From positions 64,001 to 128,000 of IMG/VR virus record IMGVR_UViG_3300029922_000013: DNA of 64,000 nt; one strand, given 5' to 3'. Shown piece by piece: positions 30,753 to 61,751 of this stretch. Both the position numbers and the translations under genes were made by a program. How positions within the stretch are numbered: position 1 is the first letter of the stretch; each line of letters starts with the position of its first letter. The stretch comes from a virus. The notes beneath the pieces are model-generated. The model was not told the origin of the DNA and did not search any database. It saw nothing but the letters and a program-made list of their open reading frames with translations.

Positions 30753-30760
30753 TAAAGATT
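30753..30760 (-). promoter_or_regulatory. AATCTTTA putative late promoter
   Basis: Recurrent octamer upstream of structural genes. Confidence 0.65.
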
Positions 30761-30814
30761 GCCGGTTTATCTTTTAACGCTAAATTGCTTACTTTACTAA
30801 ATAAATTCACATAC

Positions 30815-31912
30815 TTATGGTTGATAACTTGCCAACTGCCACGAAAGTTTGTAATTGGAGGTGTCTAGTGGCATATTCCAGTCAACTGTAAAAAAGGAAG
30901 AGCTTTTGTTCCTAATCAAAATAGGTTGAAATTGTGGGTTGCTATCTGTACTATTTGTGAATTCTGCCAAAACCACATAATCTCCTGTGGCTAGAGGGGT
31001 AGGCAGAGAAATGGTAAGCGTTGTCGCTCCACTTCCTATAGGATACTCCCCTATTTGAGATATAGCTGCGCTTACCACATAATCTATCGCGTAATCTCCG
31101 GTATTTGTAGGATAGTTCCAGGTAGCCGTAAAGCTACTAGTAAGATGTCCAGAGGTCTTAGCGGTTATGGTAATAGGCTGGTATTCCACTCCGCTGAAAG
31201 GATCTAAAAGATTCGTGAATTGGGCCAATACTACAAAACTATTACTGATTTGGTCCACCGATAGTGGCACTGTCACGGAAGTAGCACCTAGGCCAACTGG
31301 GAAAGTACCGGCTACCCTAGCTGGGGTAACTGAAGTCCCGCTTGAGCTACCACCACCGACCAATTGTGTTATGTTACTTTGAGTTAGACCTGAGACCGTT
31401 CCAGCATTGTTGAATACGGTTATGTATGCAAATGGAAGAGTATTTGCCGTTGGGAGAGGTAGTTCAGAAGTTTCATTAACTGCAGCTGCGAGAGAGCCAG
31501 CCGAAAAAGAAGGCCCGACAGATATTCCCACGTTAGAGGAAGTATCCAACCACAGTAAAACCTGCTGATATTGGCCACTAGTAACTGACAGGGCTACGCT
31601 AGCACCAGTAGAAGTGGTAACATTTCCAGTAGGTGAAGTTGGTATTGTTGCAGTTGCTGACGATAAAAAAGGTACCGTATTATTAATGTAAGAGATGCTT
31701 CTCTGGATATTTGAATCTGGATTAGAAGGTAGACTCGTGGCTATAAGAACTTCGTGACCCAGGTTTATAAAGGGGACCACATTTAGAGGTGGCTCTAATT
31801 GAAAATTAATAGAAGTAAGAACTTCTTGAAGAGTCAAACCTGCAGTCGCGGCTATTTCTGAGAGAAGACCTCTTAATACTATTTGGCGACTATCGATTGG
31901 TTTAAATGCCAT
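30815..31912 (-). CDS. Fibre-associated protein with two H-lectin/gp53-like C-terminal domains
   Basis: Duplicated VVLAxFTN...QPI...FTxxWNxP...Y module. Confidence 0.65.
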   Translation of the reverse strand: MAFKPIDSRQIVLRGLLSEIAATAGLTLQEVLTSINFQLEPPLNVVPFINLGHEVLIATSLPSNPDSNIQRSISYINNTVPFLSSATATIPTSPTGNVTTSTGASVALSVTSGQYQQVLLWLDTSSNVGISVGPSFSAGSLAAAVNETSELPLPTANTLPFAYITVFNNAGTVSGLTQSNITQLVGGGSSSGTSVTPARVAGTFPVGLGATSVTVPLSVDQISNSFVVLAQFTNLLDPFSGVEYQPITITAKTSGHLTSSFTATWNYPTNTGDYAIDYVVSAAISQIGEYPIGSGATTLTISLPTPLATGDYVVLAEFTNSTDSNPQFQPILIRNKSSSFFTVDWNMPLDTSNYKLSWQLASYQP

Positions 31913-31923
31913 ATATTACCCTA

Positions 31924-34900
31924 TTAATTATTCAGTATTGCTGTCCAAGACAAGACATAATTTGCCGTATCCGTTGGCATATTCCATTTCAAAGTAAATC
32001 CAGTAGTAGCCTGAGCTGTTACGTCGATAGGTTGGAATTGCGGATTCGTATCCGTGGTATTTAAGAAATTGGCAGTCACAGAATAGGCGGTACTAGCGTA
32101 TGCCGTACTGAGCGTGATAGCCTTACTGGTTGCACCACTCGTCAAAGTCGTTTTACCACTAAATATCCCTAACATCGTTAGAACTTGAGCAGCAGTTAGA
32201 TCTGCAGCATTAGCCGTACTACCAGTATTGTTACCTTTGATAGTATCAGCCGGCATTTGAGCCAAGTTAGTATTGGTAATGACGTTGGTTCCAGATACAC
32301 TTGCAGCAGTCCCAGACGTATTCGCCGCGTTATTCGGAATGTCCCCCGAAGCTAAAGCTCCCCATGCTGGAGCGGCAGATACCGATCCCGTTCCAGTTTG
32401 AGTTAGGAATTGTTTTGTGGCCGTGGTATTACCTGCAAGTCTGGCTGGTGCTGGAGTTGCATTTTCATATATAATATCACCCAATGTGGTCATTGGGTTA
32501 GTGAACGGAGTAGACCAAGTCATGGCCGTTGAACCGCCAGCCTGGGATGTTAGGACTTGGCCAGCACTACCAACGGTTGTTGGGAGATTGAAATTGTATG
32601 CGGAAGTTGCACCACCGTTTTGTACGGTGATGGATGCTCCACCTACTCCTGTAACAGCGAAACTAAGTTGACCTGTTTGGACAGCATTGATACCTAAAGT
32701 AGGAGTTGCTGTAAACGAAGGATCTGAACTAGTTCCTTGACCAGCAAGAAGTGTTCCAGCAGCAGCCGCAGCCAGTTGAGTAATGGCAGAGGTTCCAGCA
32801 CCAATCAGGACACCGTGATTTGTCAGTGTCGTTTGGCCAGTACCGCCATGATTCACAGCGATGGTGGTAGCATTCCACGTACCAGTTGTGATAGTTCCAA
32901 CGGACACCAGAGCCGAAGCCGTAGTTAGCCCACTAAGAGTGGTAAGGGTGGAATTAGTAGTCGCTACTAGTGAAGTTACCCCAGTATTCGAGATGGTCAC
33001 GTCTCCAGTTACAGCAGTTGCTGTAGCAACATTTGATCCATTACCGAGCAAGATATCCGCACTTGGAAGAGATGCTAATTTGGAGAAAGCAATTGCTGCA
33101 GAGCCAGATACCTGAGTATTTGTAATTCCACCAGCCTTGACTTCTAGCTGATCACTGCCATTGATATCTATAGTAGAATTATCAACATTAACTGAAATTT
33201 TTGTACCACTTCCACCTGAAATAGCGCCGGTAGTGGAGAATGCAGTGGAAGCGATTTGTGTTTCAGTAATTCCCGCATTTTTAACGGAGAAAACTCCACT
33301 TACTAATTGAAGTGTTATTCCATCTGCCGAGTATGCTCCTGCTGAAGAAAACTGGACCCAAGTGATAGCAGTCGTGCCAAGTGTCCCGCCTGGTTGGGAA
33401 GTGCAGACAAAACCTAAATCGGCATTGACAGTACCTTCTTGTACAAATACAGCAGCCGCTGGGACTTCAGCCCAAGTATTCATATCTGAAGAACGTGCCC
33501 ACGCTCCAGAAGCGGAAACGTATATCCCGTTATTTGCTGCTGTGGACTGATTTTTAACTAAAACACGAGAAGAGCTTGTGGTGAACCCATCAATTGTTTG
33601 CTCACCGGACAGGGTAATGTTAGCCGTAGTAGCTACCAAAACTGCATTTTTCCAAGAAGTAGCGTTGATAAAATTGTCAACATAGCTTTTGTTGACCAAA
33701 TCATTTGGATTAACAGGAGTGCTACTATTTGTAGGTGTAAATCCGCCAAGATTGATAGCGCCAGACATCGTTCCACCAGCAAGAGGTAGATATATAGCCG
33801 ACAAGCTTGGAATGTCTGCGGAAACGAGAGACCTAAAGGTAGGCTGAGCTGCCGATCCAGTAGATGGCCCCGCAAACACAGTATTGGCAGTTTGAGTACT
33901 AAGGGTAAAAGTTAAAGTTCCGGAACTAGTTACCGGACTTCCAGAAATAGAATAAATGGGTGTTGAACTTCCGTCCGAGAGGGCGACAGAAGTAACGGTA
34001 CCACTAGTGGCAGGACTTGCCCAAGATGGGATTCCGCCAGACACTGTAAGTATTTGTCCTGTGGAACCAATGCCCAACTTGGACAACACGTTGGTCGCGC
34101 TAGCGTACAAAGTGTCACCAGTTGTGTACGAACTTAGTCCGGTACCACCATGTGTTGGTCCTATTGCAGTTCCATTCCACACACCGGTCGTAATGGTTCC
34201 GATAGACGCAAGACTAGAAGCTGTGGTAAGAGCAGACAGACTAGTGAGAGTTCCGTTAGAAGTAGCCACTAAACTGGTAGCTAATGACCCAGCAGTAGTC
34301 GTTACGTCACCAGTTAATGTTGGGAATTGACCTGCTTGCAAAGTTCCAGATGCTTGTGTTGTAAGAGAAACTGTGCCAGAAAGTTGAGAAGTTGGCAGAC
34401 TCAAAGAAGAAAGGGTGGTTAGCGTGGAATTGGAGGTAGCTGTGATATTAGCAGCATTCCCAGAAATATTTCCAGATACTTGCGATCCAGGCAAAGAAAG
34501 GCTTGAAAGAGTAGTAAGGGTACTGTTACTAGTAGCAGTGATATTGGCAGCTGTACCCGTTGTATTTTGATTTAACGTAGGAATATCAGCTACAACAATA
34601 GTTCTAAATGTAGGTGCTCCTGATGATCCATTAGGTGCAGCCAAAAACGTATTTGCGGCTTGATTTTGAAAACTAGAAAGAGTTAGGTTACCAGTGCTAG
34701 TAATCGGAGTATTTGTAACATTAAACAATCCAGTAGAATCAACTAACCCAACTGAAGTGACCCCAGTACTTGGAATCGAATAGTAACCTAACGTTCCCGA
34801 ACCGTTCGTACCATAATATTTCGTATTACCTGGGGTTGCGGAATCGTTAACTAAAGTTACCGTTCCACCAGTATTTACTAAAGAATCTGAGAAGACTAAT

Positions 34901-35754
34901 GCCGAACCGCCTGCTTGCCAGGTAGGAAGGGCTCCGGGACCGTTTGAAGTGAGAACATATCCGCTAGTACCTAAACCTGAAACCTGCTGTAGGGCGCCTG
35001 TAGAAGTCAACCCACCTGCTAGTACCGCGTAAGGTGTAAAAGAAGTGTTTCCAGTACCGCCTTCAGAAACTGAAGCTGGATTTGGACCAGCGCCACTTGG
35101 GACGTTCCCAACACCCATCATTTGGCCATCGATCCAAATTTGAGTAGTGCTCATCACTATACCAATTTTTAGATCGGATTCGTTAGTACCAGTTGGGGCA
35201 GTCGTACTAAAAGCTCCTGCGGAAGTCAGCCAAACTGGCTTGCCGATATCGCCTGTGGCAAAATCAGTATCACTGGAGCCTAGAGTGTAAGAACCGAATG
35301 AGTAAACCGTTATGCCTTGTCCAGCGGATACGCTGGTGGTAGAGAAAGCTATACCAATCGCCCAAAACTCGTCTGCCGTAACAGTATTGTAATCGGCTTT
35401 GTAAACTTCATCTGTTGATTCTGAGAGAGAGTTCATTCCCCATCGAACAATGTAAGAAGTATCTGCCGTGAAAGATTCACCAGCAATAAAAGTATTTGAT
35501 ATTGCAGAAGAAGTGGCCACTGAAGACCAACTTAAGTTCCCAGAGCCATCGTTTTTAAGAAATGTCCCGGCTGTTCCCTGGGCATTTGGCCAGAACACAG
35601 CATAGCTGGTAGTAGTGGCGGAAGCAAATTGGGTAAGATTTCCAGAAGTAGCTCCGTCAACTTGTAATCCCAACACACTTAGGGTGTTGAGAGATAGATC
35701 TACAGTTCTAGGGGCACCGTTTTGGAGTTGTAGAAATTTCGAATAAACACTCAT
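31924..35754 (-). CDS. Long fibre protein, 1276 aa
   Basis: WKNAVLVATTANITLSG...RVLVKNQ...NGIY tail-fibre domain; repeated GTVTSV, LTGDVT and GGTG modules. Confidence 0.8.
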   Translation of the reverse strand: MSVYSKFLQLQNGAPRTVDLSLNTLSVLGLQVDGATSGNLTQFASATTTSYAVFWPNAQGTAGTFLKNDGSGNLSWSSVATSSAISNTFIAGESFTADTSYIVRWGMNSLSESTDEVYKADYNTVTADEFWAIGIAFSTTSVSAGQGITVYSFGSYTLGSSDTDFATGDIGKPVWLTSAGAFSTTAPTGTNESDLKIGIVMSTTQIWIDGQMMGVGNVPSGAGPNPASVSEGGTGNTSFTPYAVLAGGLTSTGALQQVSGLGTSGYVLTSNGPGALPTWQAGGSALVFSDSLVNTGGTVTLVNDSATPGNTKYYGTNGSGTLGYYSIPSTGVTSVGLVDSTGLFNVTNTPITSTGNLTLSSFQNQAANTFLAAPNGSSGAPTFRTIVVADIPTLNQNTTGTAANITATSNSTLTTLSSLSLPGSQVSGNISGNAANITATSNSTLTTLSSLSLPTSQLSGTVSLTTQASGTLQAGQFPTLTGDVTTTAGSLATSLVATSNGTLTSLSALTTASSLASIGTITTGVWNGTAIGPTHGGTGLSSYTTGDTLYASATNVLSKLGIGSTGQILTVSGGIPSWASPATSGTVTSVALSDGSSTPIYSISGSPVTSSGTLTFTLSTQTANTVFAGPSTGSAAQPTFRSLVSADIPSLSAIYLPLAGGTMSGAINLGGFTPTNSSTPVNPNDLVNKSYVDNFINATSWKNAVLVATTANITLSGEQTIDGFTTSSSRVLVKNQSTAANNGIYVSASGAWARSSDMNTWAEVPAAAVFVQEGTVNADLGFVCTSQPGGTLGTTAITWVQFSSAGAYSADGITLQLVSGVFSVKNAGITETQIASTAFSTTGAISGGSGTKISVNVDNSTIDINGSDQLEVKAGGITNTQVSGSAAIAFSKLASLPSADILLGNGSNVATATAVTGDVTISNTGVTSLVATTNSTLTTLSGLTTASALVSVGTITTGTWNATTIAVNHGGTGQTTLTNHGVLIGAGTSAITQLAAAAAGTLLAGQGTSSDPSFTATPTLGINAVQTGQLSFAVTGVGGASITVQNGGATSAYNFNLPTTVGSAGQVLTSQAGGSTAMTWSTPFTNPMTTLGDIIYENATPAPARLAGNTTATKQFLTQTGTGSVSAAPAWGALASGDIPNNAANTSGTAASVSGTNVITNTNLAQMPADTIKGNNTGSTANAADLTAAQVLTMLGIFSGKTTLTSGATSKAITLSTAYASTAYSVTANFLNTTDTNPQFQPIDVTAQATTGFTLKWNMPTDTANYVLSWTAILNN
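34393..34551 (-). repeat. Two identical 21-aa repeats (AANITATSNSTLTTLSSLSLP)
   Basis: Copies at 34489-34551 and 34393-34455; 16 of 21 codons differ synonymously. Confidence 0.85.
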
Positions 35755-35815
35755 GTTATCTTCCTCTTAACTGCATTAATCTTTTTTGAGAAATTCGTCA
35801 TCTATCAACCCTAGT

Positions 35816-35823
35816 TAAAGATT
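35816..35823 (-). promoter_or_regulatory. AATCTTTA putative late promoter
   Basis: CGGCAATCTTTA, same 12-mer as at 30753. Confidence 0.65.
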
Positions 35824-35860
35824 GCCGTTTTCGAGGCGTTCAAAGGGTTTATATCATAAT

Positions 35861-35892
35861 AAAAAGGGTTGACCACCAATGGCAGTCAACCC
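35861..35892 (-). terminator. Rho-independent terminator after the 770-aa fibre gene
   Basis: GGGTTGAC/GTCAACCC stem followed by a T5 run on the minus strand. Confidence 0.75.
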
Positions 35893-35922
35893 CTTAATAT
35901 CATTAATTAATTGGGGTAAATG

Positions 35923-38235
35923 TTAATTTATTCCCATAGTTTGAACTTGGACCATGATGTTATTGGCATCTTTAACCATACCAACCTTAACAACAGCCGA
36001 AAGAGTTGCTGTAGGAGCGGTAGTGGTACAAGCGCCAGATGCACCCAGATAGAGTGGAAGTCCTGGGGTGAATCCATGCGAAGGTACATTGATATAACCT
36101 TCTTCGGTCACAGTGACTGCTCCACCAGCAGAAACTGCACCTGCTGGGTAAGCTAGACCGATAACGTAGAAGTTATCGTTAGTGGTGGTATCGTTATCAG
36201 CTTTCCACATATGGCCAGCAGTGCCGCCGCCATCAGTTGTACGTTCATATCTCAAGGCATACAAAGTACTTGCCGACAAAGCCTGATCTGAAATTTCAGA
36301 AGTGGCATTTTTAGGAGAAGACAACACTTCGATAGTGCTTCCAGCTCCATTTTGATCGGTAGTAATTCCGTCCGTGACAGCGCCGAGTTTAGCAGCAGTT
36401 ACGGCAGCATTGTTGATCTTAGAAGTAGTAACAGCATTTGCAGCAATCGTAGTTGCAAAACTACCAGTACCGGAACCAGTTACATCACCAGTCAAGGTGA
36501 TCGTTTGGTCGCCAGTGTTGGTTCCGCTTGAACTTCCGGAGAAGTTAGAAGCAGAAATTGCACCAGAGAAGTTCGCAGCAGCAGCCGTAATGGTTCCAGT
36601 GAGAGTAGGGCTTGCACTGAAAACAACGTTTCCAGTACCAGTCGTACCGGTAACCGTGTTACCTTGGATGGCTGCGATAGTAGCAGCTTCAGATTGCGAC
36701 TGAGTAGCAGCAGAAGTCGTAACGTCACCAGTTAACTGATTGATAGCGTTAACAGTAACAGCGCCAGTTGCACCGTTTACGGAAACAACGCCGTCAGCAA
36801 GAGGGGAACGCTGCCAAATAGTGCCATTGTAGATGACGAAATCGCCAACATAGTAGCTTTGTGAACCGCTACCAAGATTTTGGGTACCAGCGACAGATAC
36901 GCGATAAACCCAACCAGCAGTTCCGGTGCCGTCAGCAAGAGTTGGAGTGTTGGTAGAAGCATCCCATGCTCCTTTGTACTCCATGACGCTAGAAGGCAAT
37001 TGGCTAAGAGGAACTTTACCGGAACCATCCAAAGAAGCTACGCCGTTAGCAGAACCAACTTCGGTTTGGGTTACGTAAGTAGCAGACAAATCTGGGATAT
37101 CTGCAGAAACCAAAGATCTGAATCCTGGTTGAGCAGCAGATCCGCTAGATGGACCAGCAAATACTTTATTTGCAGACTGAGTGTTAAGAGTAAAGGTCAG
37201 ATTACCAGTGCTGGTAACAGGACTGTTAGAGATGGTGTAGATTGGTGTACTAGAACCATCAGCTAAACCGACAGAAGTTACGGTACCGCTCGTTGCAGGG
37301 GCTACCCACGATGCGGTCGACCCATTGGAAGTAAGAACGTACCCAGAAGTACCTATAGCAAGGTTGCCGTAAGTATTGGTACCGGTTCCTAAGATCAATC
37401 CACCAGTTGCAGTAGCTGGGGCAAGTGCGTTAAATGCAGCTGCAGCTGAAGTCTGGCCAGTACCGCCGTTTGCTATTGCAATCGTAGTACCATTCCAAGT
37501 ACCGCTGGTGATTGTCCCAACGGAAGTTAAGCTGGAAGAGAGTACGTTAGATGCCAAAGTAGAGCCAGTGAGAGTTCCAGCAGGAGCAACTACGGCATTA
37601 CCGCTAGCAGCAGTGATCAATCCCTTAGCATTTACAGTAAAGGTGGGAATGGATGTTGAAGAACCGAAACTGCCCACATTTAGGTTGACAGTCGCCAAAG
37701 TAAAGGCAGCGGCTCCCGGACCACTCGCTGTGCCATCTCCGGTCAAGCTAGTGATAGCACTCGTGGAAAGGTTGGCGAGGGCGTTATCGATACCAGCCAA
37801 TGCGCCCATGACTGTTGGAGCAGTAGGGGTGAAAAAGTTATAAGTAGCCGTATCTCCAATGAGAGAAGACCCTGCATCAACCCCACTAGTAAGAGTGGTT
37901 GTTCCTGCAGTTGGGGTTTGTGACCCACTACCGCTAGTCAGGGTGGCCATGTTGTTGGAGTGTGCTAGGTTCCAAGCAGCGATTTGAGCTGCAATCGTAG
38001 TCGAACCATTGAACACTAGGGCAATTGAGTTGCCGGCTGCTCCAGGGTTATTTGCCGTAATCGTTACGGAAGTAGACGTTCCAGGAATCGTCCCAGTAAA
38101 GGAGCTATAGGCTCCTGTTTGTGAGAGAAGTGTTGTTCCAACTTCGAGAGCTTGGACCTGGAGAGTATTTGCTGACAAGTCAATAGTTCGTGCTACGCCA
38201 TTGACTAATTCTAAAAACTTACTGTAAGTAGACAT
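35923..38235 (-). CDS. Fibre protein, 770 aa, paralogous to the 1276-aa fibre
   Basis: Near-identical N-terminus and shared ~75-aa module; YKGAWDA and GVVSVNGATGAV motifs. Confidence 0.8.
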   Translation of the reverse strand: MSTYSKFLELVNGVARTIDLSANTLQVQALEVGTTLLSQTGAYSSFTGTIPGTSTSVTITANNPGAAGNSIALVFNGSTTIAAQIAAWNLAHSNNMATLTSGSGSQTPTAGTTTLTSGVDAGSSLIGDTATYNFFTPTAPTVMGALAGIDNALANLSTSAITSLTGDGTASGPGAAAFTLATVNLNVGSFGSSTSIPTFTVNAKGLITAASGNAVVAPAGTLTGSTLASNVLSSSLTSVGTITSGTWNGTTIAIANGGTGQTSAAAAFNALAPATATGGLILGTGTNTYGNLAIGTSGYVLTSNGSTASWVAPATSGTVTSVGLADGSSTPIYTISNSPVTSTGNLTFTLNTQSANKVFAGPSSGSAAQPGFRSLVSADIPDLSATYVTQTEVGSANGVASLDGSGKVPLSQLPSSVMEYKGAWDASTNTPTLADGTGTAGWVYRVSVAGTQNLGSGSQSYYVGDFVIYNGTIWQRSPLADGVVSVNGATGAVTVNAINQLTGDVTTSAATQSQSEAATIAAIQGNTVTGTTGTGNVVFSASPTLTGTITAAAANFSGAISASNFSGSSSGTNTGDQTITLTGDVTGSGTGSFATTIAANAVTTSKINNAAVTAAKLGAVTDGITTDQNGAGSTIEVLSSPKNATSEISDQALSASTLYALRYERTTDGGGTAGHMWKADNDTTTNDNFYVIGLAYPAGAVSAGGAVTVTEEGYINVPSHGFTPGLPLYLGASGACTTTAPTATLSAVVKVGMVKDANNIMVQVQTMGIN

Positions 38236-38270
38236 GTTGTGTTACCTCTTTTTTTAATTATGTGTTGCTT

Positions 38271-38278
38271 TAAAGATT
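38271..38278 (-). promoter_or_regulatory. AATCTTTA putative late promoter
   Basis: Octamer about 35 nt upstream of ATG. Confidence 0.6.
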
Positions 38279-38322
38279 ATCCCTTGTTTTATAAACCAAT
38301 ACAATTTATTGATATTAAAGGA

Positions 38323-38769
38323 CTATAATTCACCGAAGACTTGCGAGAGTATCTGAAGGTCTTGATTTGATGGATTAACTATGTTTGGGACAATTGTCCC
38401 ACAAAACACTATAAAATCGCCCATCCCAAAACCTGTGACACCATCATCTGGACGAACATTCTGGAGTGATCCAGATATGCTCATGTAAATAGGATCTCCT
38501 AGACTAAAACTATATCCGGTCAAATTTTCTAACCGACCACCCGAAATGACTGGTCCGGTAGCATTCGCGGCAATCCGGACTTGCGCGTAACCAACAAAAC
38601 TGGCCACAGAAACGTCGCTACTCACATTGGTGGGATAAACAAAGCTACCAGTTATGCTTAATGGGGTTCCTTGCGGAATAGCTGTAGGATTACCATTAGT
38701 ATAGTTAGTCACAAGTGCTATACTTGATCCATTCGCTTGGCTACCAACAAAATTTGGATTATAGCTCAT
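38323..38769 (-). CDS. Structural protein, stand-alone cement/DUF2190-like domain
   Basis: GPVISGG...FSLGDPIYMSISGSL resembles the domain in both fibres. Confidence 0.55.
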   Translation of the reverse strand: MSYNPNFVGSQANGSSIALVTNYTNGNPTAIPQGTPLSITGSFVYPTNVSSDVSVASFVGYAQVRIAANATGPVISGGRLENLTGYSFSLGDPIYMSISGSLQNVRPDDGVTGFGMGDFIVFCGTIVPNIVNPSNQDLQILSQVFGEL

Positions 38770-38787
38770 ATTATAAGATTCCCCTCA

Positions 38788-41514
38788 TTAGAAGAGGTAC
38801 CAACCAGTTCCAGTGCTAATTATTGAGAATGATTCGTATTGAACCATAGTGGATACGGTGCTCAGACCGTCAATCAAGTCTCCGCCGTTACCCTGAATAA
38901 CCATCGCATTGGCTGAAGAATCGATTTTTTTCATATAAAAAATCCTCCCTGTGTTGCCGCTCGCTGTAGGTAACGTAAATGTCAGAGTTCCAGTTGTCGC
39001 ATCTGCTGCTAAGAAACAGTCCGTGGTTAAAACAGAGTATGAACTGGTCTTAACAGAAACTGGCACGGGACCGCCAGCTGCATTAAAGCCAGGCGCACCC
39101 GTAGGACCGGCGACTCCTGGAGGACCTTGAGGACCGGGAGTGCCTCCGCCACCAGCTCCACCGCCACCACCACTTAATCTAAGTTCAAGCTCATCGCCCA
39201 CCACAAGACCGTAATGGATCTGAATTTCGTTACTTGGAGCATCTAATGTGCCGACTTCGGTATAGGCGCCGCTCTCTAAGTCTAGGAACTGGCCATTTAA
39301 GAAAACTTGTAGAGTTCCTTTTCCTACCGTGTAATACTGGACTGCATTGGATTCTCTAGTATTGTTCGGAAGGAAAATATTCGTGCCAGGGGTAACTGGA
39401 CCAGTTATAGATGTTGGGGGAGTAGCTCCTGAAGCAACGATCTCTACTACTTCGTCATAAGTAGGATTATCTAGCGATTCTATAATGCTTGATATTTCTT
39501 GATCTAACTTTTTAATAGCTAGAGTTAGATTATCACCATCTTGAATGATGAAGTTTCCAACACCAGTTCCGGATGTGGAAACAAAAATTGCAAACGGAGG
39601 GCCAATATTAAAATCGGCTGGAGAAAACGTAGTACCAGCAGAGTTGTTGGTAATAGTAACTGCGTTAGCAATGTTAGTTGCAGTGAAATCTTTGAAAAAA
39701 GTTCCATTTAAAGCTGTGACCAACGCGGCAGCGGTTTGAGTAGATGTTTGCCCAGTAGCTACATCCCACTCAATTCCAGTGGCGTTGGCAACTGGCATTG
39801 GATTTATGCCGGTTCCATCTTTGTTAACCCAAACGTAATACTCTCTGCCGCCAGCAGAATAAATTAAGAAATACTGATCAGATGTCAATGTACTAGCATC
39901 GCCAGTTGTAACGTCGGTAACTTGTTTTGAGACCGTAGGACCGTTACCTTCATATATATTGTAGGCAGATACGTAAAAAGGAGTAGTGGAAGACTCAATT
40001 TGGCTACCAACGTAGGTCAAGACATTTTGGAGCTGTGGACCAGAAATTTCTTCGGAATCACCTTGTTGAAGATCAGTTCCTAGCCATTTAACATAAACTC
40101 TAGGAATTGCTCCGCCATCATCTTCTCGAACAAATAGCCAGAAGGTGCTTGGGCTGATTGGTACCGCACCGCGACCTGCAAGTTGAATATCTCTCAAGCC
40201 ACCCGTAACGCCTGGCAAAGTATATGAGCCGTAGGCGTACAAAGAGGGAGCACCTGAAGAGCTTGTACTAGATCCTGTAAATACTTGAGTTAAAGTTACT
40301 TGAGAAGAAGAGTTAATGGTTTGAATCTGGTAATATCCAGCATGAGTGCTAGAAGCCAGACGAATCCAATCACCAAATCCATTTGCTGTGACGCTATAAA
40401 GTCCAGAAGTCCAAGCAACATTTCCAACCGAAGTTACGACAGCGCTTGAGTTGGTCCAAATCAGATTTGGCGCAACGGGAACATCTCTGGTAAGTTCTAT
40501 GTAGGCTACTTCATTATCACTTAAAGTGACAGTAGTACCAGAAGGATTGGTTGCGATTTGATAACTTAAATTTGCACCAATTATCTTCAGATTTATTGGA
40601 CTAGACCAGTTTATGAGGCCGGCTGTAGTAGCGCTATGAGTGATGGCACCAGTTCCAGTCATTACAGTTGCTGTAGCATCTTCTCTAAGAAGAGGAACCG
40701 ACCCAACGTTACTGGATGTGAATGAGTACCAATAAGGGCCACCATTAAGGCCCAGCAATTGGGTCATTACGGCGTCCATCCAATCCTTGAGATCTGTTAT
40801 GCCTTTATCGCCACCAAAAAATGGATTGCTGGAATTGGAAGTAGTGGTAGTGTTATTTTCGGTCTGACCTTCAGGCCATGGAAACGTGTGGAATGGGTTT
40901 GGACTTGCTCCACCAGTTCCTAAGCGTAATAGAAGTGGTCTTGAATCAGTAATAGAAACGACGTTATTGCTAGAATCTGTTTGGATTATAGCCAAAGGCA
41001 AAACATTTGTTGCCCAAAGGGTGGCCGTGATCACGAACTTGTAGTTCATGGTTATGGCCGCTGGAGCTATACCCTCGTCTTCTTCGTCACTGGTGGGGTC
41101 CCAAAAATAACGCTGAGTATCGGTCGTAGCATCTTGAAAACGGTAATAGTCTATCCCAACATAGTTGTTGGCATTAGGGACAAAAGACCCAATCACGTTG
41201 GCGACTGTGGCAGCATTCAGGGTGACATTAGGAGTACCAGTTGGGACTAGAAAGAAAGTACCTGATTGAGAAGCGGTGGTATGTAGTAGTGAGCTATTGG
41301 CAACGATGACCTGCAAATTAGAGGCGGCGCCCGTAATAGGGGCAGCAGACATGTTTATAGCGAAACCATTGATAATATAGGGGGTATCTGGTCCAGATAT
41401 GAGAGCCTCTGCGACTAGATCAAAGTCTGCAGACGCAGCGCTTTCGATCGCACGCATGTCCGAGACTTCTTCTCGCATTTGAGAAAGCTGATTAACTCTC
41501 CTAATAATAGCCAT
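38788..41514 (-). CDS. Baseplate or fibre protein with short collagen-like segment
   Basis: Structural module context; GTPGPQGPPGVAGPTGAPG; C-terminal TLPTA...GRIFYMKKID fibre domain. Confidence 0.65.
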   Translation of the reverse strand: MAIIRRVNQLSQMREEVSDMRAIESAASADFDLVAEALISGPDTPYIINGFAINMSAAPITGAASNLQVIVANSSLLHTTASQSGTFFLVPTGTPNVTLNAATVANVIGSFVPNANNYVGIDYYRFQDATTDTQRYFWDPTSDEEDEGIAPAAITMNYKFVITATLWATNVLPLAIIQTDSSNNVVSITDSRPLLLRLGTGGASPNPFHTFPWPEGQTENNTTTTSNSSNPFFGGDKGITDLKDWMDAVMTQLLGLNGGPYWYSFTSSNVGSVPLLREDATATVMTGTGAITHSATTAGLINWSSPINLKIIGANLSYQIATNPSGTTVTLSDNEVAYIELTRDVPVAPNLIWTNSSAVVTSVGNVAWTSGLYSVTANGFGDWIRLASSTHAGYYQIQTINSSSQVTLTQVFTGSSTSSSGAPSLYAYGSYTLPGVTGGLRDIQLAGRGAVPISPSTFWLFVREDDGGAIPRVYVKWLGTDLQQGDSEEISGPQLQNVLTYVGSQIESSTTPFYVSAYNIYEGNGPTVSKQVTDVTTGDASTLTSDQYFLIYSAGGREYYVWVNKDGTGINPMPVANATGIEWDVATGQTSTQTAAALVTALNGTFFKDFTATNIANAVTITNNSAGTTFSPADFNIGPPFAIFVSTSGTGVGNFIIQDGDNLTLAIKKLDQEISSIIESLDNPTYDEVVEIVASGATPPTSITGPVTPGTNIFLPNNTRESNAVQYYTVGKGTLQVFLNGQFLDLESGAYTEVGTLDAPSNEIQIHYGLVVGDELELRLSGGGGGAGGGGTPGPQGPPGVAGPTGAPGFNAAGGPVPVSVKTSSYSVLTTDCFLAADATTGTLTFTLPTASGNTGRIFYMKKIDSSANAMVIQGNGGDLIDGLSTVSTMVQYESFSIISTGTGWYLF

Positions 41515-41579
41515 TATTTCACCAACTTATGTAAGTTTATTAGAAAAGACATACTAGCCCTCTAGGATACACTCTAAGG

Positions 41580-41587
41580 TAAAGATT
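41580..41587 (-). promoter_or_regulatory. AATCTTTA putative late promoter
   Basis: Octamer upstream of the 908-aa gene. Confidence 0.6.
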
Positions 41588-41606
41588 CCTATTTGTTTTA
41601 TATCAC

Positions 41607-41636
41607 TTGACTTCCAATCTTTACCTATGATAGAGT
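41607..41636 (+). promoter_or_regulatory. sigma70 promoter (leaderless) with AATCTTTA inside its spacer
   Basis: TTGACT-N18-TAGAGT; AATCTTTA at 41616-41623; ATG 6 nt downstream. Confidence 0.6.
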
Positions 41637-41642
41637 CAAGAC

Positions 41643-42035
41643 ATGAGGTATTCCACAGTGGGGAAATCCAAGGACCGTACTGGTGAAATTAGTAGGGAAC
41701 AGAGATTTGTTAAGGAAAATCAAGCACTTAAGCGTGAAAATAGTCGCCTTCGTAAACTATTAGCTCGCATAGATCTAGATCGTTATGATCAAGTACGTGA
41801 AATCATAGAAGAACATTATTCCGAAAGGAAAAATGAGGGACAAGAGATTCTTGATAAAATGAAAGAAGAGTGGCGTTGCCACCAGTGTAGAACCGGTTTG
41901 TTGGAGATTTTTCTATTTAATAAAATAAATGAAACCTATTATTATCGTAAATGTAATGGTTGCACAAATCGTACCAAAAGCAAGAAATACACTCCGAGTG
42001 TTCGTGGGATCATAAAGAAAGAAGAAAGTAAATAA
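41643..42035 (+). CDS. Coiled-coil plus zinc-ribbon protein
   Basis: CHQC...CNGC. Confidence 0.7.
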   Translation: MRYSTVGKSKDRTGEISREQRFVKENQALKRENSRLRKLLARIDLDRYDQVREIIEEHYSERKNEGQEILDKMKEEWRCHQCRTGLLEIFLFNKINETYYYRKCNGCTNRTKSKKYTPSVRGIIKKEESK

Positions 42036-42253
42036 TGGAATTTGTAGAAGGCCAAGTTGTTATTTGTGGAACAGGACAATGTGGAACTATAGCCCAAAAA
42101 TCGGGCAAAGAGATCTGGATATTATTGAGAAACGGAGACCTTTTTGTAGGTCAGGACTACCAAATCAGGGTTCCTCAATCCCAAGAAGATCTAGATTCCT
42201 GCCCTTTAAACGTAGATCGTGTTGAGACCAAAAGAGAAACTAGGGAGCGTTAA
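42035..42253 (+). CDS. Hypothetical small beta-rich protein
   Basis: Coupled ORF. Confidence 0.65.
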   Translation: MEFVEGQVVICGTGQCGTIAQKSGKEIWILLRNGDLFVGQDYQIRVPQSQEDLDSCPLNVDRVETKRETRER

Positions 42254-43002
42254 GTCACCCACCACTTCGAATACGGATTTTGGTCCAATCCTTTAGGATT
42301 GTAGTAGATCGCAGCCACATCGTTCATCTTATTGGGGTAATCCTTAGCCAGTCTGCGAAGCCATATCAAAGAAGCTAACAAACACATAAAGCTAGTTTTC
42401 TTAGTGTTGTTTTGCAAATGCCATGCTAAACGTCTAGAATCGGTATCTCCAGTAGGAGTTCCTATGCAAGAAATGGCAATAGAACCTGCAGCTACAAAGT
42501 AAACTGGAAAAGACAGGATTCTAATCAACCAGTGAAAAGGATTTAGCAATGATGGGAAAGCTGCAGATACCATAGCAGCCACCAACTGCGGCTGTCTAAC
42601 AAGAAAACTTTGCAAAGTCTTCGTTCCAGGATTCACATTATTCAAAAAACCTAGGTATTTTATGCAAGCCCAAAATAGTGTTCTGGGGATATCGGTATTT
42701 TTTAATTCAATGCAACCATTAAGTACCGCTAAAATATTATCTGGACCGTCTTGACCGTCATTTTGACCTACAGGAACACGATTGAGCAAACCTTCAGGCC
42801 CAATACACCTATCTATCATATGTTCAAAGCTAAGTTCGTCTGATACAGTAAGTTGACCATTTTTCTTAAGAATAATATACATCTCAGAGGTATACATTGT
42901 ACCATTATCTGACCCACTTTGATTTGATGCCCAAGATCCGGGCTGGGGCGAATTTAGTCCATTACCGTCAATATAGCTCTTAAAATCATCTATAATATCC
43001 AT
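42250..43002 (-). CDS. Hypothetical protein with hydrophobic segments
   Basis: 250-aa ORF starting 5 nt after AATCTTTA. Confidence 0.7.
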   Translation of the reverse strand: MDIIDDFKSYIDGNGLNSPQPGSWASNQSGSDNGTMYTSEMYIILKKNGQLTVSDELSFEHMIDRCIGPEGLLNRVPVGQNDGQDGPDNILAVLNGCIELKNTDIPRTLFWACIKYLGFLNNVNPGTKTLQSFLVRQPQLVAAMVSAAFPSLLNPFHWLIRILSFPVYFVAAGSIAISCIGTPTGDTDSRRLAWHLQNNTKKTSFMCLLASLIWLRRLAKDYPNKMNDVAAIYYNPKGLDQNPYSKWWVT

Positions 43003-43007
43003 ATCTG

Positions 43008-43015
43008 TAAAGATT
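43008..43015 (-). promoter_or_regulatory. AATCTTTA putative late promoter (leaderless)
   Basis: GCAATCTTTA-cagat-ATG. Confidence 0.65.
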
Positions 43016-43026
43016 GCGCTTTTTTG

Positions 43027-43055
43027 TTGACTTTTTGCTAGAAGCTTGGTAGTCT
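43027..43055 (+). promoter_or_regulatory. sigma70-type promoter
   Basis: TTGACT-N17-TAGTCT, TG extension, AGGAGG SD. Confidence 0.7.
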
Positions 43056-43073
43056 GGTTATAGGAGGATACAT

Positions 43074-43541
43074 ATGACCTATTTATCCATTATGGCAGCG
43101 GCAGCAAAGGCAGCTCATGTATCAACAACACTACTTTATGCAATTTGTGCACACGAATCCAAAGATTTTTCATTAGATTTCGCAGAATACGACAATGGTA
43201 GCCCATCGTATGGGGTGTGCCAAGTTAAAGAAGACACAGCTAGATTTTTAGGTTTTAAAGGAAAATCTATGGAACTTAGAAATCCTATGATTGGAGCAAA
43301 GTACGCCGCTCTATATTTAAAATATCAACTAGATCGTTATAGCGGAAATGTATATAAAGCAGTTGCGGCCTATAACGCAGGTTCGTTTATTGAAAGCAAG
43401 AAACGTCCTGGTTTTGCTGCGAATCATAAATACATCAATCTCGTAAAACAAAAGCTTGACAAACGTCTGCAACACGTACTAGATAGTAACAACACGAATT
43501 ATTTTATTGACAAAATGGAGTTAAGCTATGAAAGTCGTTAA
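43074..43541 (+). CDS. Lytic transglycosylase (SLT domain)
   Basis: AICAHES (catalytic Glu), YGVCQV, YLK, AAYNAG. Confidence 0.88.
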   Translation: MTYLSIMAAAAKAAHVSTTLLYAICAHESKDFSLDFAEYDNGSPSYGVCQVKEDTARFLGFKGKSMELRNPMIGAKYAALYLKYQLDRYSGNVYKAVAAYNAGSFIESKKRPGFAANHKYINLVKQKLDKRLQHVLDSNNTNYFIDKMELSYESR

Positions 43542-44328: not shown

Positions 44329-44339
44329 ATTAAATCCCT

Positions 44340-46293: not shown

Positions 46294-49200
46294 TTACGTA
46301 ATCAAAGAGACTGAAATATTCTGGCTTGGGTCCAAAATAAAAGTTTGTTCACTAGGCTGTACTACGATCAAATCGTTGTTCTCATTATAAAGTGGACTAG
46401 AAATTGCAACACTTATAACCCCAGGTATCGTAGTGCATACAGCTATTATATTTGATATCGCTATGGATTGCCCAACGGGATTTGAGCTTATCAAAGCAGC
46501 CACGTTATTTCTAACTTGTTGTGAAATGGATGAGAATGGAGCCCCAGTTTGAAGTCTCACTTCCAAAGCCAGATTAACTACCAGCGCTAAAGGCTCTCTC
46601 ACAAACACATCAGTTCCGGCAGCGACTACTCCGGGAAATGTCAAAGGATCTGTAGGATCTCCATATAAAATTCTATTGGCTTCCTGAATGAGTCCAGTAT
46701 TATACTTATATCCATCCAATCCCTGGCTAACCGTAGTCGGGAAGTTTAGCTTGTCTAGAGAGGTTACTACTACTCCGGCAGCCTGATTTATCTTTTCGTA
46801 TTGAGCAACTGTATCAAAAAGAATCTCGTTTAAAGCAGGTGATCCAGGTTGTGGCGCTACTAGATAGGTATGCTTGTAACCAGAGTAGGGAACGCCTTCT
46901 TCGATATAGAAGGACGATAACAAGCCAGTAAGATTTACCGTGCTGGCAGCTGTTAGGACACCTTTGACAATGATGTTATTTTCATCGATTAGTTGGGTGA
47001 CCGGATAAGTCCCAGCATTGGAAGTGCCTATGGAACTTGTAAAAGCAGTAAAAGTAATGGTTGCATCTCCGGTACCGCTAGTTTTTGTCAAAGTACCCGT
47101 ATTCGTTGGAGTTCCAGTACCCGCAGTCACCAACGTATTGGCGCCCGCGATGGTATTAGTTACCACAAAAGTCTGACTATTGTTTGTGTAAGTAGCCCCT
47201 TCAGTAGCACTCGCCGTGGTCACCGTGAAAGTGTATTGTTGACCATCAAAAGCCGTGCCAGATATGACCAAATCGTCCCCTACTACAGTATCTTCATATT
47301 CATAAAAAGTAAGAGATCCGGAACTCAATACGACTTCTTCTTCTAAAGCGTCGGCATTTTGAATCCAGAAACTATCATTGAACGTTCTTATAACTCTGTA
47401 AGATCCCTGATTAGGTCCTGAGAACGGGCCAGCTACTACTACCGTATCACCTTCCATAACACCAGTAGAAGCCTGAAAAGTAACCCCAGCAGTTACCATT
47501 TCAGCTCCCGTAGCCACGGCATTAGGGTTGGTTACCTGTAATATATTGGAACTAACCCCAGTTACAATAAAAGTACCGCTGTTAGGAGCTGATGATGGCA
47601 TATCTATCGTAACCAATTCGCCGATCGATAAGCCGCTAAAAACAGTACTGCCCAGTAAAATAGTGTATTTAGAATCATTAGTTCCAGGAACCAAGGCTAC
47701 ATTAAAAATGTCTCCATTTGTACTATTAAAATTGACTGGAACTGTCAAAAACTGAGGACTACTAGTAGAACCTACATAGCTAAAACAAACTAAATTCCCC
47801 TGATTTTCTACCCTGAATGTAAGTCCTGTCAATCCACTAATCACACGGGGCTGTCCAAAGTATCTCTGAGTTGAGTTTATTCCAGACAAAGAAATTTGAC
47901 TAAATCCAGCAGATGGCGTATTAGGTAGAATTGTTACATCAGTATTGTTGCCAAACAAAGTGTCTTTTTGTTGTGTGTACGTAGCTTGTAACCTAAACCA
48001 TTGGTCGCTTAGCACATAACCAGAAGGAATGATGGATGCCGATATCGCTGCGTAAGTATTATCTATATTTAAAGCGCCGTTGATAACAGGGAAAGTATAT
48101 CCATTTGCAGCACCTCCAACAACATCTACGTATCCACCAGAACCGAAGGTATCAGAGGATATTTCTAGTTCGGAATCTCTATTGGCTGTATTGATAAGGC
48201 TCGTCGTTGTTATTCCGCTTACGGGAAGAACATTCACAAATTGATATACTTGATCTATGGTAGTAGGCGAGAACATGATAGTTTCGCCATTATTGAAAGC
48301 GTATCCCACATCTGTCGGCAAAGAAAGCGGATTCTTCAATACAAACTGAGGTGAGCCGGTATTCACAAACGTTAGTGTAGTTTGAGTATTGTTACCAGTA
48401 GCAGCTGGAGAAATAGTAACAGCAGGCCCATTAACACTCACTACTGTTGTGCCGCCTGAAATGCCAGCACCGGATACTGCGGCACCAGGCCTAATTCCAT
48501 TGGTTGGAGATATGTCAGTTAAAATGTTGCTACCAGTAGAAGTGGTTCCATCGACAACAGTAGTATTATTGATTAAATTGCTATACAAAAGCCAATTCAT
48601 GCCATCGAGGAGCTGAGCACTTGCGTTAGCCGTGATGATACCTGCTCCCGGTGTTCCTCCAGAACCATCGTCAACAACAGTAGCCGTAATATATGTGGGC
48701 AAATTAGTGGTTACATATGCTGCAACTGCTGTAGCCGTAGTGGCGGGTGGGACAGTAATCGTAATATTTACAGTATTTGTTATAGTGACAGAATTGGTAA
48801 TAGAACTTGCGGCACCATTGAAAATATAGCTGACTATAATTTCTTGACCCGTTGTGCCCCATGGAACGGACCTATACAAGATAGAGCTTTGTTGGGTAGT
48901 GCTACTCAAAGTTTTCTTGGCTTGCATCAAAACTCTGTAGTTATTGAAAACAAAATTTGGACCAAAGGAAGTGGCGAAGTTACCGGTTGGTGCGTAATCC
49001 TTATCGTAAGCATTGAAATTGTGGGAATTAACCGCATAAGAGGTGTTGGTTAAAGCTCTTCTGTAGAGAGGTACCTGGAACGTATTGTTGACTGGGTTAT
49101 TGTCAATAATAGCTACCAACGAGTCATTGTTCCCAAATGACAGCGGGTTGGACAAGAAATACCGATCATTAGTTCTGAGTCTTCTTACGTCTGGATCGTA

Positions 49201-54718: not shown

Positions 54719-54726
54719 TAAAGATT
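54719..54726 (-). promoter_or_regulatory. AATCTTTA putative late promoter
   Basis: GCAATCTTTA 15 nt before ATG 54703. Confidence 0.65.
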
Positions 54727-59334: not shown

Positions 59335-61691
59335 TACCATTTACCACCAGATGGCCCAATCATGGGTGAGCTTTTGCCAGCAGATGAAGAATTGGCTTGA
59401 GGCTGAGATTTGCCCAGTTTAGCTGCCATGGCATTGTAGTCTTCGGCTTTCATTTTTCCTTCTTTAACGGCTGCTGCGGCGGCGCCCAACGTAAGTATAG
59501 ATACAGTAAGTTTGTCTACATCTGTGGCTGTTGGAACTAAATTTTTACCGAAAGATTCGAAATTTTGTATAAATTTTAATTGACCTGCCGCTATGGCAGC
59601 ATTCTCTTGATCCGCCAATTTGGGCGTTTTAGGTTCTTCTGGAGCTAGTGGGCGAGGGAAGAAACCCTTACCTTTTGGAGTAAGAGATGCACCAGCCGCA
59701 TTCATTTCCTGTGCTTTAGTTATTTCTGGAGCAGCGCCTGTACCGGTAGCCGTATACCACAAACCTGTTTGTCTGGCAGCAGATTCTATTTCGGCAGGAA
59801 TATCGGCTCCCAAACGTTTAGCCTCAGACATAGAGTTGTATCCGGCTTTTTCTAACCAGGATCTAACTGCCTTGGCATTCTCTTGTGTATGTCCCGTGAT
59901 ATCTGAACCGGCAGCAGTTGTGGAATCCTTCATTCCCATTATATCTTGTGCCGTGACTTGCTTGCCACCGCGCTTATTGAGCTGATACATGGCTTCCTGA
60001 ACAACTGGATGCTGTTCTGTTAAATCTGCTGGTGATATCTTTTTCAACTGCTCAAATAGCATGGCCCCTTCGTCGCCCATGCCCGCTAGGCGTCTGCCTA
60101 CAGGATTTCTCAACATCGCAGCTCTTTGCATTACGCTAAAAGGACCACCCTGCTGACTACCGAGTTTTTGATAAGCCTCATAAGCAGTCTTTGCGGCTTC
60201 CATACCTGCAGACGTATTTTCTACAAATCCTCTGCCGAATTGCTCGCTAATGCGAGAAACATCTCCTGGGGTTTTAGCACCACTTCTAGATACATATTCA
60301 CTAGTAGTTTGCGTAAAATCTCTTAATAAGTCAACTAAGTCGCTATCATTCAGACCTATCTTAAAAGCTTCTCCGATAATCTTGGCGGAAGCTTCTTTAG
60401 TCTCTTGTGCTCCACCCATAGTCTTACTAATATTGGCCAGCATCTGGGGAGCGTTAGTTAAATTATAATCTTTTTGCAACTGAAGCCCGTAACCCGATTC
60501 TCTGCCAACTCTAGCAGATCCACCAGCTCCCATTATAGCTTGCTGCATTTGAGTAACTTGCTCTTCAGTAAATTGAGTAGTTCCCCCATATGACATATTT
60601 CTTTGCAGGAAACCACTCTTACCCATAAAACCTTGATCAGAAAGGCCTAACCCTCTTTGAGCACCAAGATTTCTTTGATAATTATGAGCATTATACTCTG
60701 CAGCCGCTTTTTTAAGAGGGTCAGCATTCTCTTCGGCTTCTTGCGACCGTTTTACGAACTCGGCTAAATCCTGAGAGGAAAGCTTTTCATAAGATTCCGT
60801 ATCGCCGAGTGTCTTGGCTCTTTGTTTCGAATCGAGCAATTTCATGCCAATACCGCCAGCGGCTACTCCTAGGCCGCCTGCCACCAATCCTGCTGGAATC
60901 CCTACGCCAGTTGCACCTAAAAGTCCCGCAGCTCCCAAGCCGACTGCACCTGCCCCTACCAAAGCATTTCCAGCCCACTGTTGGGCGGTGTCGAAAGTTC
61001 TTTGGCCTTGCCAAGCCTTCCTAGCATTAGCCATTGCTGCCGCTCTTTCAGGCATAAAAGCTAAGTGATAAGGATCAGCGGCGGCTTTTAATTGATCGCC
61101 AACAAGCGCATTGTTGGAACTCCCCATAGCAGAAGCCGCATCTAATGGAAGCCTACTTATTCCAGCCACAGCAGCCCCAACACCAGTGATTATGGCAGCT
61201 ATCGCGGCTCCCATTTTAGGTATATCTGCCGCAGAATTTCTAATTTTTTTATTGGATTCTTCATCCATACTAGCAATTCTTGTTGTAATAGCAGCAGCTT
61301 TAGCCATTGTCTCCGTTATTTGTTCTTGTATCTTCAGCTTTTTTTCATCGTTGCCCAAAGCCTGCTTCGCTTCGTAACTCATCTCCTTTTCTTTTTGGAG
61401 AATCTTGTTTTTTTCATTCAAAAGTTCAGTATACTTGCCCTTAGTTAAATTGAGATCTTTAACCAAATCATCTCTATATTTCTTCTGAGATTGTTCGTAT
61501 TGCTGTTGAGAAGGGGCTCCAGGCATCGTACCTAGCCCATGCTGTTGCATTTTTTGCGATATTTGCCTAAGTTGGGTCATTTGCTGAGGACCAGAATACA
61601 TTTGATTCAGCTGTTCCTGCATTTTTTTGATAGTAGCATTGAACTGCTTATCGTCTAGATCAAGTGATATTTTGAGTTTTTTCTCAGCCAT
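59334..61691 (-). CDS. Tail tape measure protein
   Basis: MAEKKLKISLDLDDKQF N-terminus; helical and Ala/Gly-rich with hydrophobic segments; upstream of hub. Confidence 0.78.
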   Translation of the reverse strand: MAEKKLKISLDLDDKQFNATIKKMQEQLNQMYSGPQQMTQLRQISQKMQQHGLGTMPGAPSQQQYEQSQKKYRDDLVKDLNLTKGKYTELLNEKNKILQKEKEMSYEAKQALGNDEKKLKIQEQITETMAKAAAITTRIASMDEESNKKIRNSAADIPKMGAAIAAIITGVGAAVAGISRLPLDAASAMGSSNNALVGDQLKAAADPYHLAFMPERAAAMANARKAWQGQRTFDTAQQWAGNALVGAGAVGLGAAGLLGATGVGIPAGLVAGGLGVAAGGIGMKLLDSKQRAKTLGDTESYEKLSSQDLAEFVKRSQEAEENADPLKKAAAEYNAHNYQRNLGAQRGLGLSDQGFMGKSGFLQRNMSYGGTTQFTEEQVTQMQQAIMGAGGSARVGRESGYGLQLQKDYNLTNAPQMLANISKTMGGAQETKEASAKIIGEAFKIGLNDSDLVDLLRDFTQTTSEYVSRSGAKTPGDVSRISEQFGRGFVENTSAGMEAAKTAYEAYQKLGSQQGGPFSVMQRAAMLRNPVGRRLAGMGDEGAMLFEQLKKISPADLTEQHPVVQEAMYQLNKRGGKQVTAQDIMGMKDSTTAAGSDITGHTQENAKAVRSWLEKAGYNSMSEAKRLGADIPAEIESAARQTGLWYTATGTGAAPEITKAQEMNAAGASLTPKGKGFFPRPLAPEEPKTPKLADQENAAIAAGQLKFIQNFESFGKNLVPTATDVDKLTVSILTLGAAAAAVKEGKMKAEDYNAMAAKLGKSQPQANSSSAGKSSPMIGPSGGKW

Positions 61692-61743
61692 TTCAAGACC
61701 TTACGTTTAGTAAACAATTAATAAAAATAGGAACATCCTAGGT

Positions 61744-61751
61744 TAAAGATT
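61744..61751 (-). promoter_or_regulatory. AATCTTTA putative late promoter within an inverted repeat
   Basis: GGTTAAAG-ATTCCGA-CTTTAACC. Confidence 0.6.

Follow-up and report, generated by a model that had tools for sequence, protein, structure and literature searches.

The window analysed here, a stretch of 64,000 nucleotides (nt), corresponds to bases 64001-128000 of a single virus record of 150,858 base pairs (bp) with 41% GC (IMG/VR record IMGVR_UViG_3300029922_000013, a genome designated G000 below). Its plus-strand half (1-27604) carries helicase, sigma factor, SbcCD-like, ClpP-like and replication-type genes, and its minus-strand half carries fibre, tail and baseplate genes. The object of this study is an octamer, AATCTTTA, which heads genes of the second half. 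An earlier reading of this DNA, made from the letters only and called below the sequence-only reading, had proposed that the octamer is a phage late promoter devoid of a -35 partner and read by a truncated sigma factor encoded at position 796. The eight copies that it had listed, seven on the minus strand and one on the plus strand, are all present, as is the variant AATCTTAT. They are given here together with an adjoining hairpin (lengths of proteins in amino acids, aa).

30753..30760 (-): AATCTTTA, candidate promoter element, intergenic and in sense, 27 nt 5' of the ATG of the 1008-aa fibre gene 27699-30725; predicted start ~30748; exact octamer kept in the orthologue of the relative G001
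35816..35823 (-): AATCTTTA, candidate promoter element of gene 31924-35754 (1276 aa); predicted start ~35811
35863..35895 (-): terminator-like hairpin, 15-bp stem followed by a T run, which would end the upstream unit before the 35816 promoter
38271..38278 (-): AATCTTTA, candidate promoter element of the tail gene 35923-38235 (phrog tail protein); predicted start ~38266
38773..38780 (-): variant AATCTTAT with an intact AATCTT core, 3 nt 5' of the ATG of 38323-38769
41580..41587 (-): AATCTTTA, candidate promoter element of gene 38788-41514; predicted start ~41575; one half of a divergent pair
41616..41623 (+): AATCTTTA, candidate promoter element of the plus-strand gene 41643-42035; divergent partner of 41580
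43008..43015 (-): AATCTTTA, candidate promoter element; the ATG of 42250-43002 is 5 nt downstream (offset 13 from the first A of the motif), with no Shine-Dalgarno sequence
54719..54726 (-): AATCTTTA, candidate promoter element of a baseplate-like gene ending at 52055
61744..61751 (-): AATCTTTA, candidate promoter element heading an operon that extends from 61691 to ~55944; predicted start ~61739

Two more copies, at 3851 (+) and 24061 (-), are intragenic. The distances of 5-66 nt announced between the octamer and the gene starts are largely borne out: the gaps are 27, 61, 35, 65, 5 and 52 nt for 30753, 35816, 38271, 41580, 43008 and 61744, and 19 nt for the plus-strand copy. The copy at 54719 fits only after reassignment of the start codon, the real start being probably the ATG at 54703 (preceded by a GAGGG Shine-Dalgarno sequence) or at 54715, rather than the TTG at 54832; these candidate ATGs are found 3 or 15 nt downstream of the octamer. 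The operon behind 61744 encodes proteins of 785, 631, 320 and 179 aa and includes a baseplate assembly match. The variant at 38773 is a possible internal promoter with a leaderless start, weaker and one position off the usual 12-nt offset described below. The copies at 41580 and 41616 form a 12-bp inverted repeat (GGTAAAGATT.. / ..AATCTTTACC) whose halves are 28 bp apart with TGATATAA in between; they could be back-to-back promoters, possibly co-regulated as well.

The number of copies in the window is not significant by itself (10 against 5.66 expected, a value reached in 4 of 100 shuffles), yet the observation holds because the placement of the copies is not random. As recommended by the sequence-only reading, the motif was counted in intergenic and coding DNA, genome-wide and in related phages, and an upstream enrichment was found. 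In the whole genome, 19 of the 27 copies are located in sense-oriented upstream intergenic DNA, a compartment that represents 3.47% of both strands (binomial P = 3e-22). Two additional copies (window 54719 and G000 26545) were scored as coding for the sole reason that the open reading frame (ORF) caller takes the longest start. When all 8-mers of the upstream sense DNA of G000 are ranked, AATCTTTA comes first, with 19 regions against 0.94 expected. Inside the window, the hexamer AATCTT is found in sense in none of the 14 intergenic gaps of the plus-strand replication and repair block (1-27604), against 7 of the 11 gaps of the minus-strand virion block (Fisher P ~7e-4, computed by hand). Merely 5-6 octamer copies of G000 are intragenic, for about 12 predicted in the coding part of the genome from the dinucleotide shuffles of the window, a low count that may reflect the avoidance of internal promoters.

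The conservation of the motif was investigated in a set of ten genomes composed of G000, eight complete relatives and the cultured Myxococcus phage Mx1, with GC contents from 34% to 61%. A single-protein scan of IMG/VR had given nothing; the relatives were obtained through an alignment of the homologues of the sigma factor, which led to 54 IMG/VR loci. Orthologues were defined as reciprocal best hits, and five relatives (G001-G005) were compared first. The octamer is again the top 8-mer in G001 (18 against 1.0 expected), where it precedes 13 of the 15 orthologues of motif-headed genes against 2 of 80 others (Fisher P = 3e-12), and it is enriched in G002, G005, G006 and G007. The form AATCTTAA is used by G003 and G009, and the GC-rich G004 and Mx1 keep AATCTT alone, which is the first 6-mer in Mx1 (12 against 2.8 expected) and the second in G004 (9 against 0.8). 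Overall, AATCTT shows enrichment in each of the ten genomes, and its rank among 6-mers is between first and fourth in G000, G003, G004, G009 and Mx1. In orthologous upstream regions of the nine relatives, Mx1 included, this core is constant among flanks that are diverged or unalignable. At 41580, for example, the exact octamer is found between diverged flanks in G001, G002, G003 and G005; its partner at 41616 is kept in G001 and G002. At 61744 the core is kept in all five relatives first compared, as the exact octamer in G001 and G005 and as AATCTTAA in G002, G003 and G004. Since G004 and Mx1 retain AATCTT alone, and since G003 and G009 use another form, the family-wide invariant element is the hexamer AATCTT, and the subsequent TA characterises the G000 lineage. 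The two bases after the hexamer indeed vary by lineage: they are TA in G000, G001, G005 and G007, AA in G003 and G009, mixed in G002 and G006, and without preference in Mx1 and G004. This lineage-specific change of dinucleotide might track changes in region 1.2 of the phage sigma factor.

Sequence logos were built from 62 octamer sites and from 178 hexamer sites. Upstream of -20, no column exceeds 0.2 bit, which agrees with the claim that the motif has no conserved -35 partner. The statement that it is often preceded by GC or GG survives in part: C or T immediately precedes the motif, A hardly ever does, and the base one position further upstream is mixed. An A-rich patch is visible 5-7 nt upstream of the motif (-19 to -17), and in 84% of the sites a purine occupies the fifth position downstream of the octamer. 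A TAAAG..CTTTA hairpin around the motif, of the N4 type, was considered and dropped: the loop lengths vary, and the logo contains the A-rich patch only.

The position of the motif relative to start codons is more informative. In G000 (twice), G001, G002 and G003, the shortest octamer-to-ATG gap amounts to exactly 4 nt. The offsets from the first A of the motif were counted in the ten genomes for every ATG opening an ORF of at least 60 codons. A spike appears at offset 12 (11 cases), followed by 3 cases at offset 13, with none at offsets 9-11; the next cluster begins at about 21, where Shine-Dalgarno-led genes start. The genes at offsets 12 and 13 have no room for a Shine-Dalgarno sequence because only 4-5 nt precede their ATG. 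Two deposited coding sequences of Mx1, starting at 36563 and 75289, are in the same situation, exactly 6 nt after AATCTT. A calibration was provided in the same genomes by the host-type TG[AG]TATA: counted from its T, the ATGs peak at offset 15, with 21 cases (35 in the interval 14-16), and offset 15 is position +1 when the TG occupies -15/-14 and the hexamer -12 to -7. The distance between hexamer and leaderless start is therefore equal for AATCTT and for the host-type promoters. By this match, AATCTT is assigned to positions -12 to -7 and the A of the ATG becomes the predicted +1, so that transcription would start 5 nt after the octamer. The second base of AATCTT (A, at -11) and the sixth (T, at -7) do not vary in any site of the ten genomes. 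The shared distance is also the main argument for considering the motif as a -10-type element and not as an operator or an RNA signal. At 43008, the ATG 5 nt downstream had been presented as the spacing expected of a -10-position element; it fits, with an offset of 13 beside the ten-genome spike at 12, and the transcript of this gene is predicted to be a leaderless mRNA. The copy at 35816, situated about 40 nt downstream of the strong terminator-like hairpin, fits a re-initiation of transcription at that point. A generic sigma70 promoter scan of 27600-47500 revealed no excess (31 found against 34 expected).

Enrichment, orientation, orthologous conservation in ten genomes, the lack of a -35 element and the -10-type distance to leaderless starts all bear out the promoter proposal, and it is highly likely that AATCTTTA is a promoter -10 element. 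More precisely, Mx1-related phages of about 150 kilobases (kb) very probably have a promoter class of their own, of which this octamer is the sole recognition element.

The same 8-mer ranking contains a second class, TTATGATATAA, with TTGACTTT further upstream, which corresponds to a host-type extended -10 promoter. One of its members precedes the gene of the sigma factor proposed as reader of AATCTTTA.

781..787 (+): host-type extended -10 motif TGATATA, 8 nt 5' of the sigma gene, the A of the ATG being the predicted +1
796..1842 (+): phage sigma factor, 348 aa, regions 1.2 to 4.1, without the helix-turn-helix of region 4.2; proposed reader of AATCTTTA

The leaderless offset of TGATATA at this gene implies that the host holoenzyme could express the sigma factor first. 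A host-type TTATGATATAA with the A of the ATG as +1 is seen at many genes (window 781-787; G000 50378, 45787, 22673 and 14808, among others), the sigma and terminase genes included, and the portal ATG is at offset 19. As judged from these start-codon positions, this group of phages appears to rely heavily on leaderless mRNAs made from both promoter classes. The genes headed by the octamer encode fibres, tail and baseplate proteins, an endolysin, a head maturation protease and two paralogous proteins resembling homing endonucleases. The latter genes (G000 59701-60720, L143:702-1721:-, and 25511-26539, L098:5511-6539:-; phrog_20046 and phrog_3339) both carry AATCTTTA 4-5 nt 5' of a leaderless ATG, and mobile cassettes of this sort may carry a late-type promoter along with them.

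The sigma factor matches phrog_351 (E = 1.8e-6) and, weakly, residues 14-198 of the 239 residues of FliA. Its homologues amount to 726 in public data, on contigs of 150-177 kb, and are 302-357 aa long in all 120 matches listed. The 25 homologues that were aligned all end at the same ...KVLRLKG(I/V)N(F/L), and the orthologues of the ten genomes, Mx1 included, stop at the same column. An AlphaFold model (predicted local distance difference test score, pLDDT, 75) retrieves only sigmaA, sigma70 and sigmaS chains with Foldseek (E = 9e-5). The comparison with sigmaS 5ipl_F gives a VIA Z of 14.2, with a root-mean-square deviation (rmsd) of 21.5 A over 201 aligned residues; a sub-domain superimposes on WhiG 7lq4_A with Z = 12.6 and an rmsd of 2.4 A over 111 residues. 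Residues 12-348 of the model align to residues 92-566 of the 613 of E. coli sigma70 and to residues 53-281 of sigmaS. The protein is thus truncated, as had been supposed: its sigma70-family fold, with the sigma2 and sigma3 domains, ends after region 4.1 and before the helix-turn-helix of region 4.2. The Pfam region-4 models (r4 and r4_2) gave no match in the six frames of G000. Each of the ten genomes contains exactly one homologue of this factor and no other sigma-like gene.

Several arguments point to this protein as the probable reader. A promoter class without a -35 element is found beside a sigma factor without a -35 reader; the core is invariant across phages that differ in their host-type promoters and in GC content; and no other sigma-like gene is available in these genomes. 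From this fit and from the co-occurrence of gene and motif in ten genomes out of ten, it is reasonably probable that the phage sigma at 796-1842 reads AATCTT. The AATCTT core would then occupy the place of the sigma70-family -10 hexamer, the TA at -6/-5 acting as an extension in the G000 lineage. Transcription would start 5 nt after the octamer, usually on a purine, and an ATG at the start position would yield a leaderless mRNA. The element would head units for fibres, tail, baseplate, endolysin, head protease and some homing-endonuclease genes. Its most probable reader would be the host RNA polymerase core associated with the phage sigma, and a -35 element would be neither needed nor present because this sigma has no -35-reading helix-turn-helix. 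Expression of the sigma gene from a host-type extended -10 promoter would make the whole a two-step cascade. For this reading as a whole, a phage-specific, -10-only promoter class read by core polymerase and the phage sigma, a probability of roughly 60% is proposed.

A further protein could complete this machinery.

12107..12337 (+): 76-aa acidic protein, one copy in each of the ten genomes

Visual inspection of its C-terminal helix suggests a resemblance to sigma region 4.2, the Arg residues that contact DNA being replaced by Glu. No sigma-4 match to this ORF was obtained in Pfam, in a PDB profile search, with Foldseek or VIA-wide. The protein is a possible flap-binding remnant of sigma region 4.2. 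A bolder scenario, offered tentatively and considered rather doubtful, is that Mx1-like phages split a sigma factor derived from a primary-type sigma, the 348-aa piece reading AATCTT and the 76-aa remnant of region 4.2 capping the beta flap off DNA, so that a -35-blind holoenzyme would start many mRNAs at AUG.

Some observations weigh against the reading of AATCTT as a promoter of the phage sigma. The start sites are predicted from the position of the motif. The link between sigma and motif is a co-occurrence in a set of genomes devoid of negative cases. The sigma protein gave no match at E <= 1 against Pfam, Sigma70_r2 included; this family is too diverged for the Pfam model. One-mismatch variants of AATCTTTA show no intergenic enrichment in G000 (25 of 285), which is stricter than most -10 elements. 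The motif TGATATAA is present 10-30 nt upstream of the copies at 35816, 41580 and 61744, so that host-type read-through could place the octamer inside a 5' untranslated region (UTR) at these sites. Finally, the terminase and portal genes carry the host-type motif, though one late-type copy lies between them, with the consequence that "late" is not a clean label. This label is plausible from the gene content of the AATCTT class, from which the timing itself is deduced.

A rival reading keeps the promoter but gives it to a sigma of the host, whether primary or alternative, with the possible help of a phage co-factor; the truncated sigma would then have another role, such as blocking the binding of the host sigma. 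In its favour, AATCTT has A at -11 and T at -7 as the general -10 pattern does, the motif is tied to the phage sigma by co-occurrence only, and the Pfam sigma models miss the 796-1842 protein. This explanation nevertheless appears unlikely: the core is invariant from 34% to 61% GC, Mx1 included, among genomes whose host-type promoters differ (TGATATAA against TGGTATAAT), which points to a phage-borne reader; neither a TG extension nor a -35 element offsets the weakness of this -10; and the truncated sigma is the only sigma-like gene of each genome.

The motif could also be an RNA processing site or a 5'-UTR element of longer transcripts, a downstream cleavage generating the leaderless mRNAs. 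A strict sense orientation suits an RNA element equally well, and some copies do have a host-type promoter shortly before them. Leaderless ATGs are nonetheless as far from the motif as from the canonical -10 hexamer of these genomes, the 35816 copy comes after a strong terminator, copies head plus-strand genes inside minus-strand blocks (41616; G000 57752 and 141928), and no conserved secondary structure surrounds the motif, which together leave this possibility with little credit. The exact conservation of 8 bp, typical of regulator sites, and the 12-bp inverted repeat formed by the 41580/41616 pair would suit an operator bound, as double-stranded DNA, by a phage repressor or activator. Such a role is slightly less credible still: the copies are for the most part solitary and without symmetry, the 4-5 nt that may separate the site from an ATG are too few to hold a distinct -10 element, and activator sites are normally near -40 or further upstream. 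As for an artefact of chance or composition, suggested by a window count within the shuffle range, it is already refuted by the placement of the copies (P = 3e-22) and by the conservation of orthologous sites in ten genomes.

The genomic context offers a few additional elements. Mx1 is the only named relative; its sigma is 35% identical to that of G000, and the two phages have in common the gene order helicase, sigma, unknown ORF and phosphoesterase. The 106-aa ORF that follows the sigma gene (1887-2207) gave no match in family searches. Just downstream of the sigma gene, the region 2365-8345 encodes a metallophosphoesterase (SbcD-like), a ClpP-like protease and an SbcC/Rad50-like ATPase. The 1008-aa fibre protein (27699-30725) contains a C1q domain near its C-terminus (Pfam E = 7e-8). 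A distant DNA search of the fibre region against a phage collection gave nothing beyond short similarity with Gordonia phages, in a tail protein.

A defined promoter and a candidate sigma factor are thus proposed for a very large and almost unstudied group of phages. The motif helps to annotate transcription units and start codons, leaderless ones included, and as Mx1 grows on Myxococcus xanthus DK1050, these predictions can be tested at the bench. Among the papers listed by a literature search for the octamer, the matches were of primer type only; the Mx1 genome note and two later papers that mention Mx1 are silent on promoters and on sigma function.

Among known systems, the late promoters of T4 had been the model of the sequence-only reading. 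Late transcription in T4 depends on gp55, gp33 and the gp45 sliding clamp, the clamp activating through gp33. T4 gp55 reads an 8-bp late promoter without a -35 element, gp33 being a flap-binding stand-in for sigma domain 4 that does not read DNA, and the pair has been described as a split sigma (PMC2988020). The resemblance lies in an 8-bp element of the -10 region, in the absence of a -35 element and in a sigma devoid of a -35 reader, and the conserved small acidic protein of the G000 group could play the part of gp33. The G000 sigma differs in keeping regions 1.2, 3 and 4.1, and the motif is another one. The qualification of the system as gp55-like is consequently acceptable as an analogy, for a single -10-region element without a -35, and not as a homology (hhalign probability 0.5%, E = 0.11). 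The extended -10 promoters of primary sigma factors (TGnTATAAT) likewise confine recognition to the -10 region, with the hexamer at the same position; they are used elsewhere in the G000 group (TGATATAA), at the same distance from leaderless starts. The AATCTT class differs from them by the absence of TG at -15/-14, by its departure from TATAAT at -12, -9 and -8, and by its restriction to one phage family.

A nearer functional analogue than T4 gp55 is gp36 of phiEco32. This sigma is devoid of region-4 homology; at the middle/late promoters of its phage it recognises tAATGTAtA as the only element, and transcription starts 6-8 bp further down (PMC8948821). In both cases a phage sigma without a working region 4 is associated with one element of about 9 bp and no -35, and the phiEco32 consensus agrees with the G000 motif at 6 of 8 positions (AATGTATA against AATCTTTA). 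The two proteins have, however, no detectable homology (hhalign probability 0.1%); gp36 has 214 aa, against 348 aa and regions 1.2 to 4.1 for the G000 sigma, and the G000 phage, with its myovirus-type genome of about 150 kb, is unrelated to phiEco32. The kind of system is known; novelty lies in the sigma lineage, its architecture, the motif and the phage group, of which the searchable literature contains no description. If the proposed reading is true, this sigma would be the third independent phage factor working without a -35 reader, retaining here regions 1.2, 3 and 4.1, a case that bears on how -10 recognition can be rewired.

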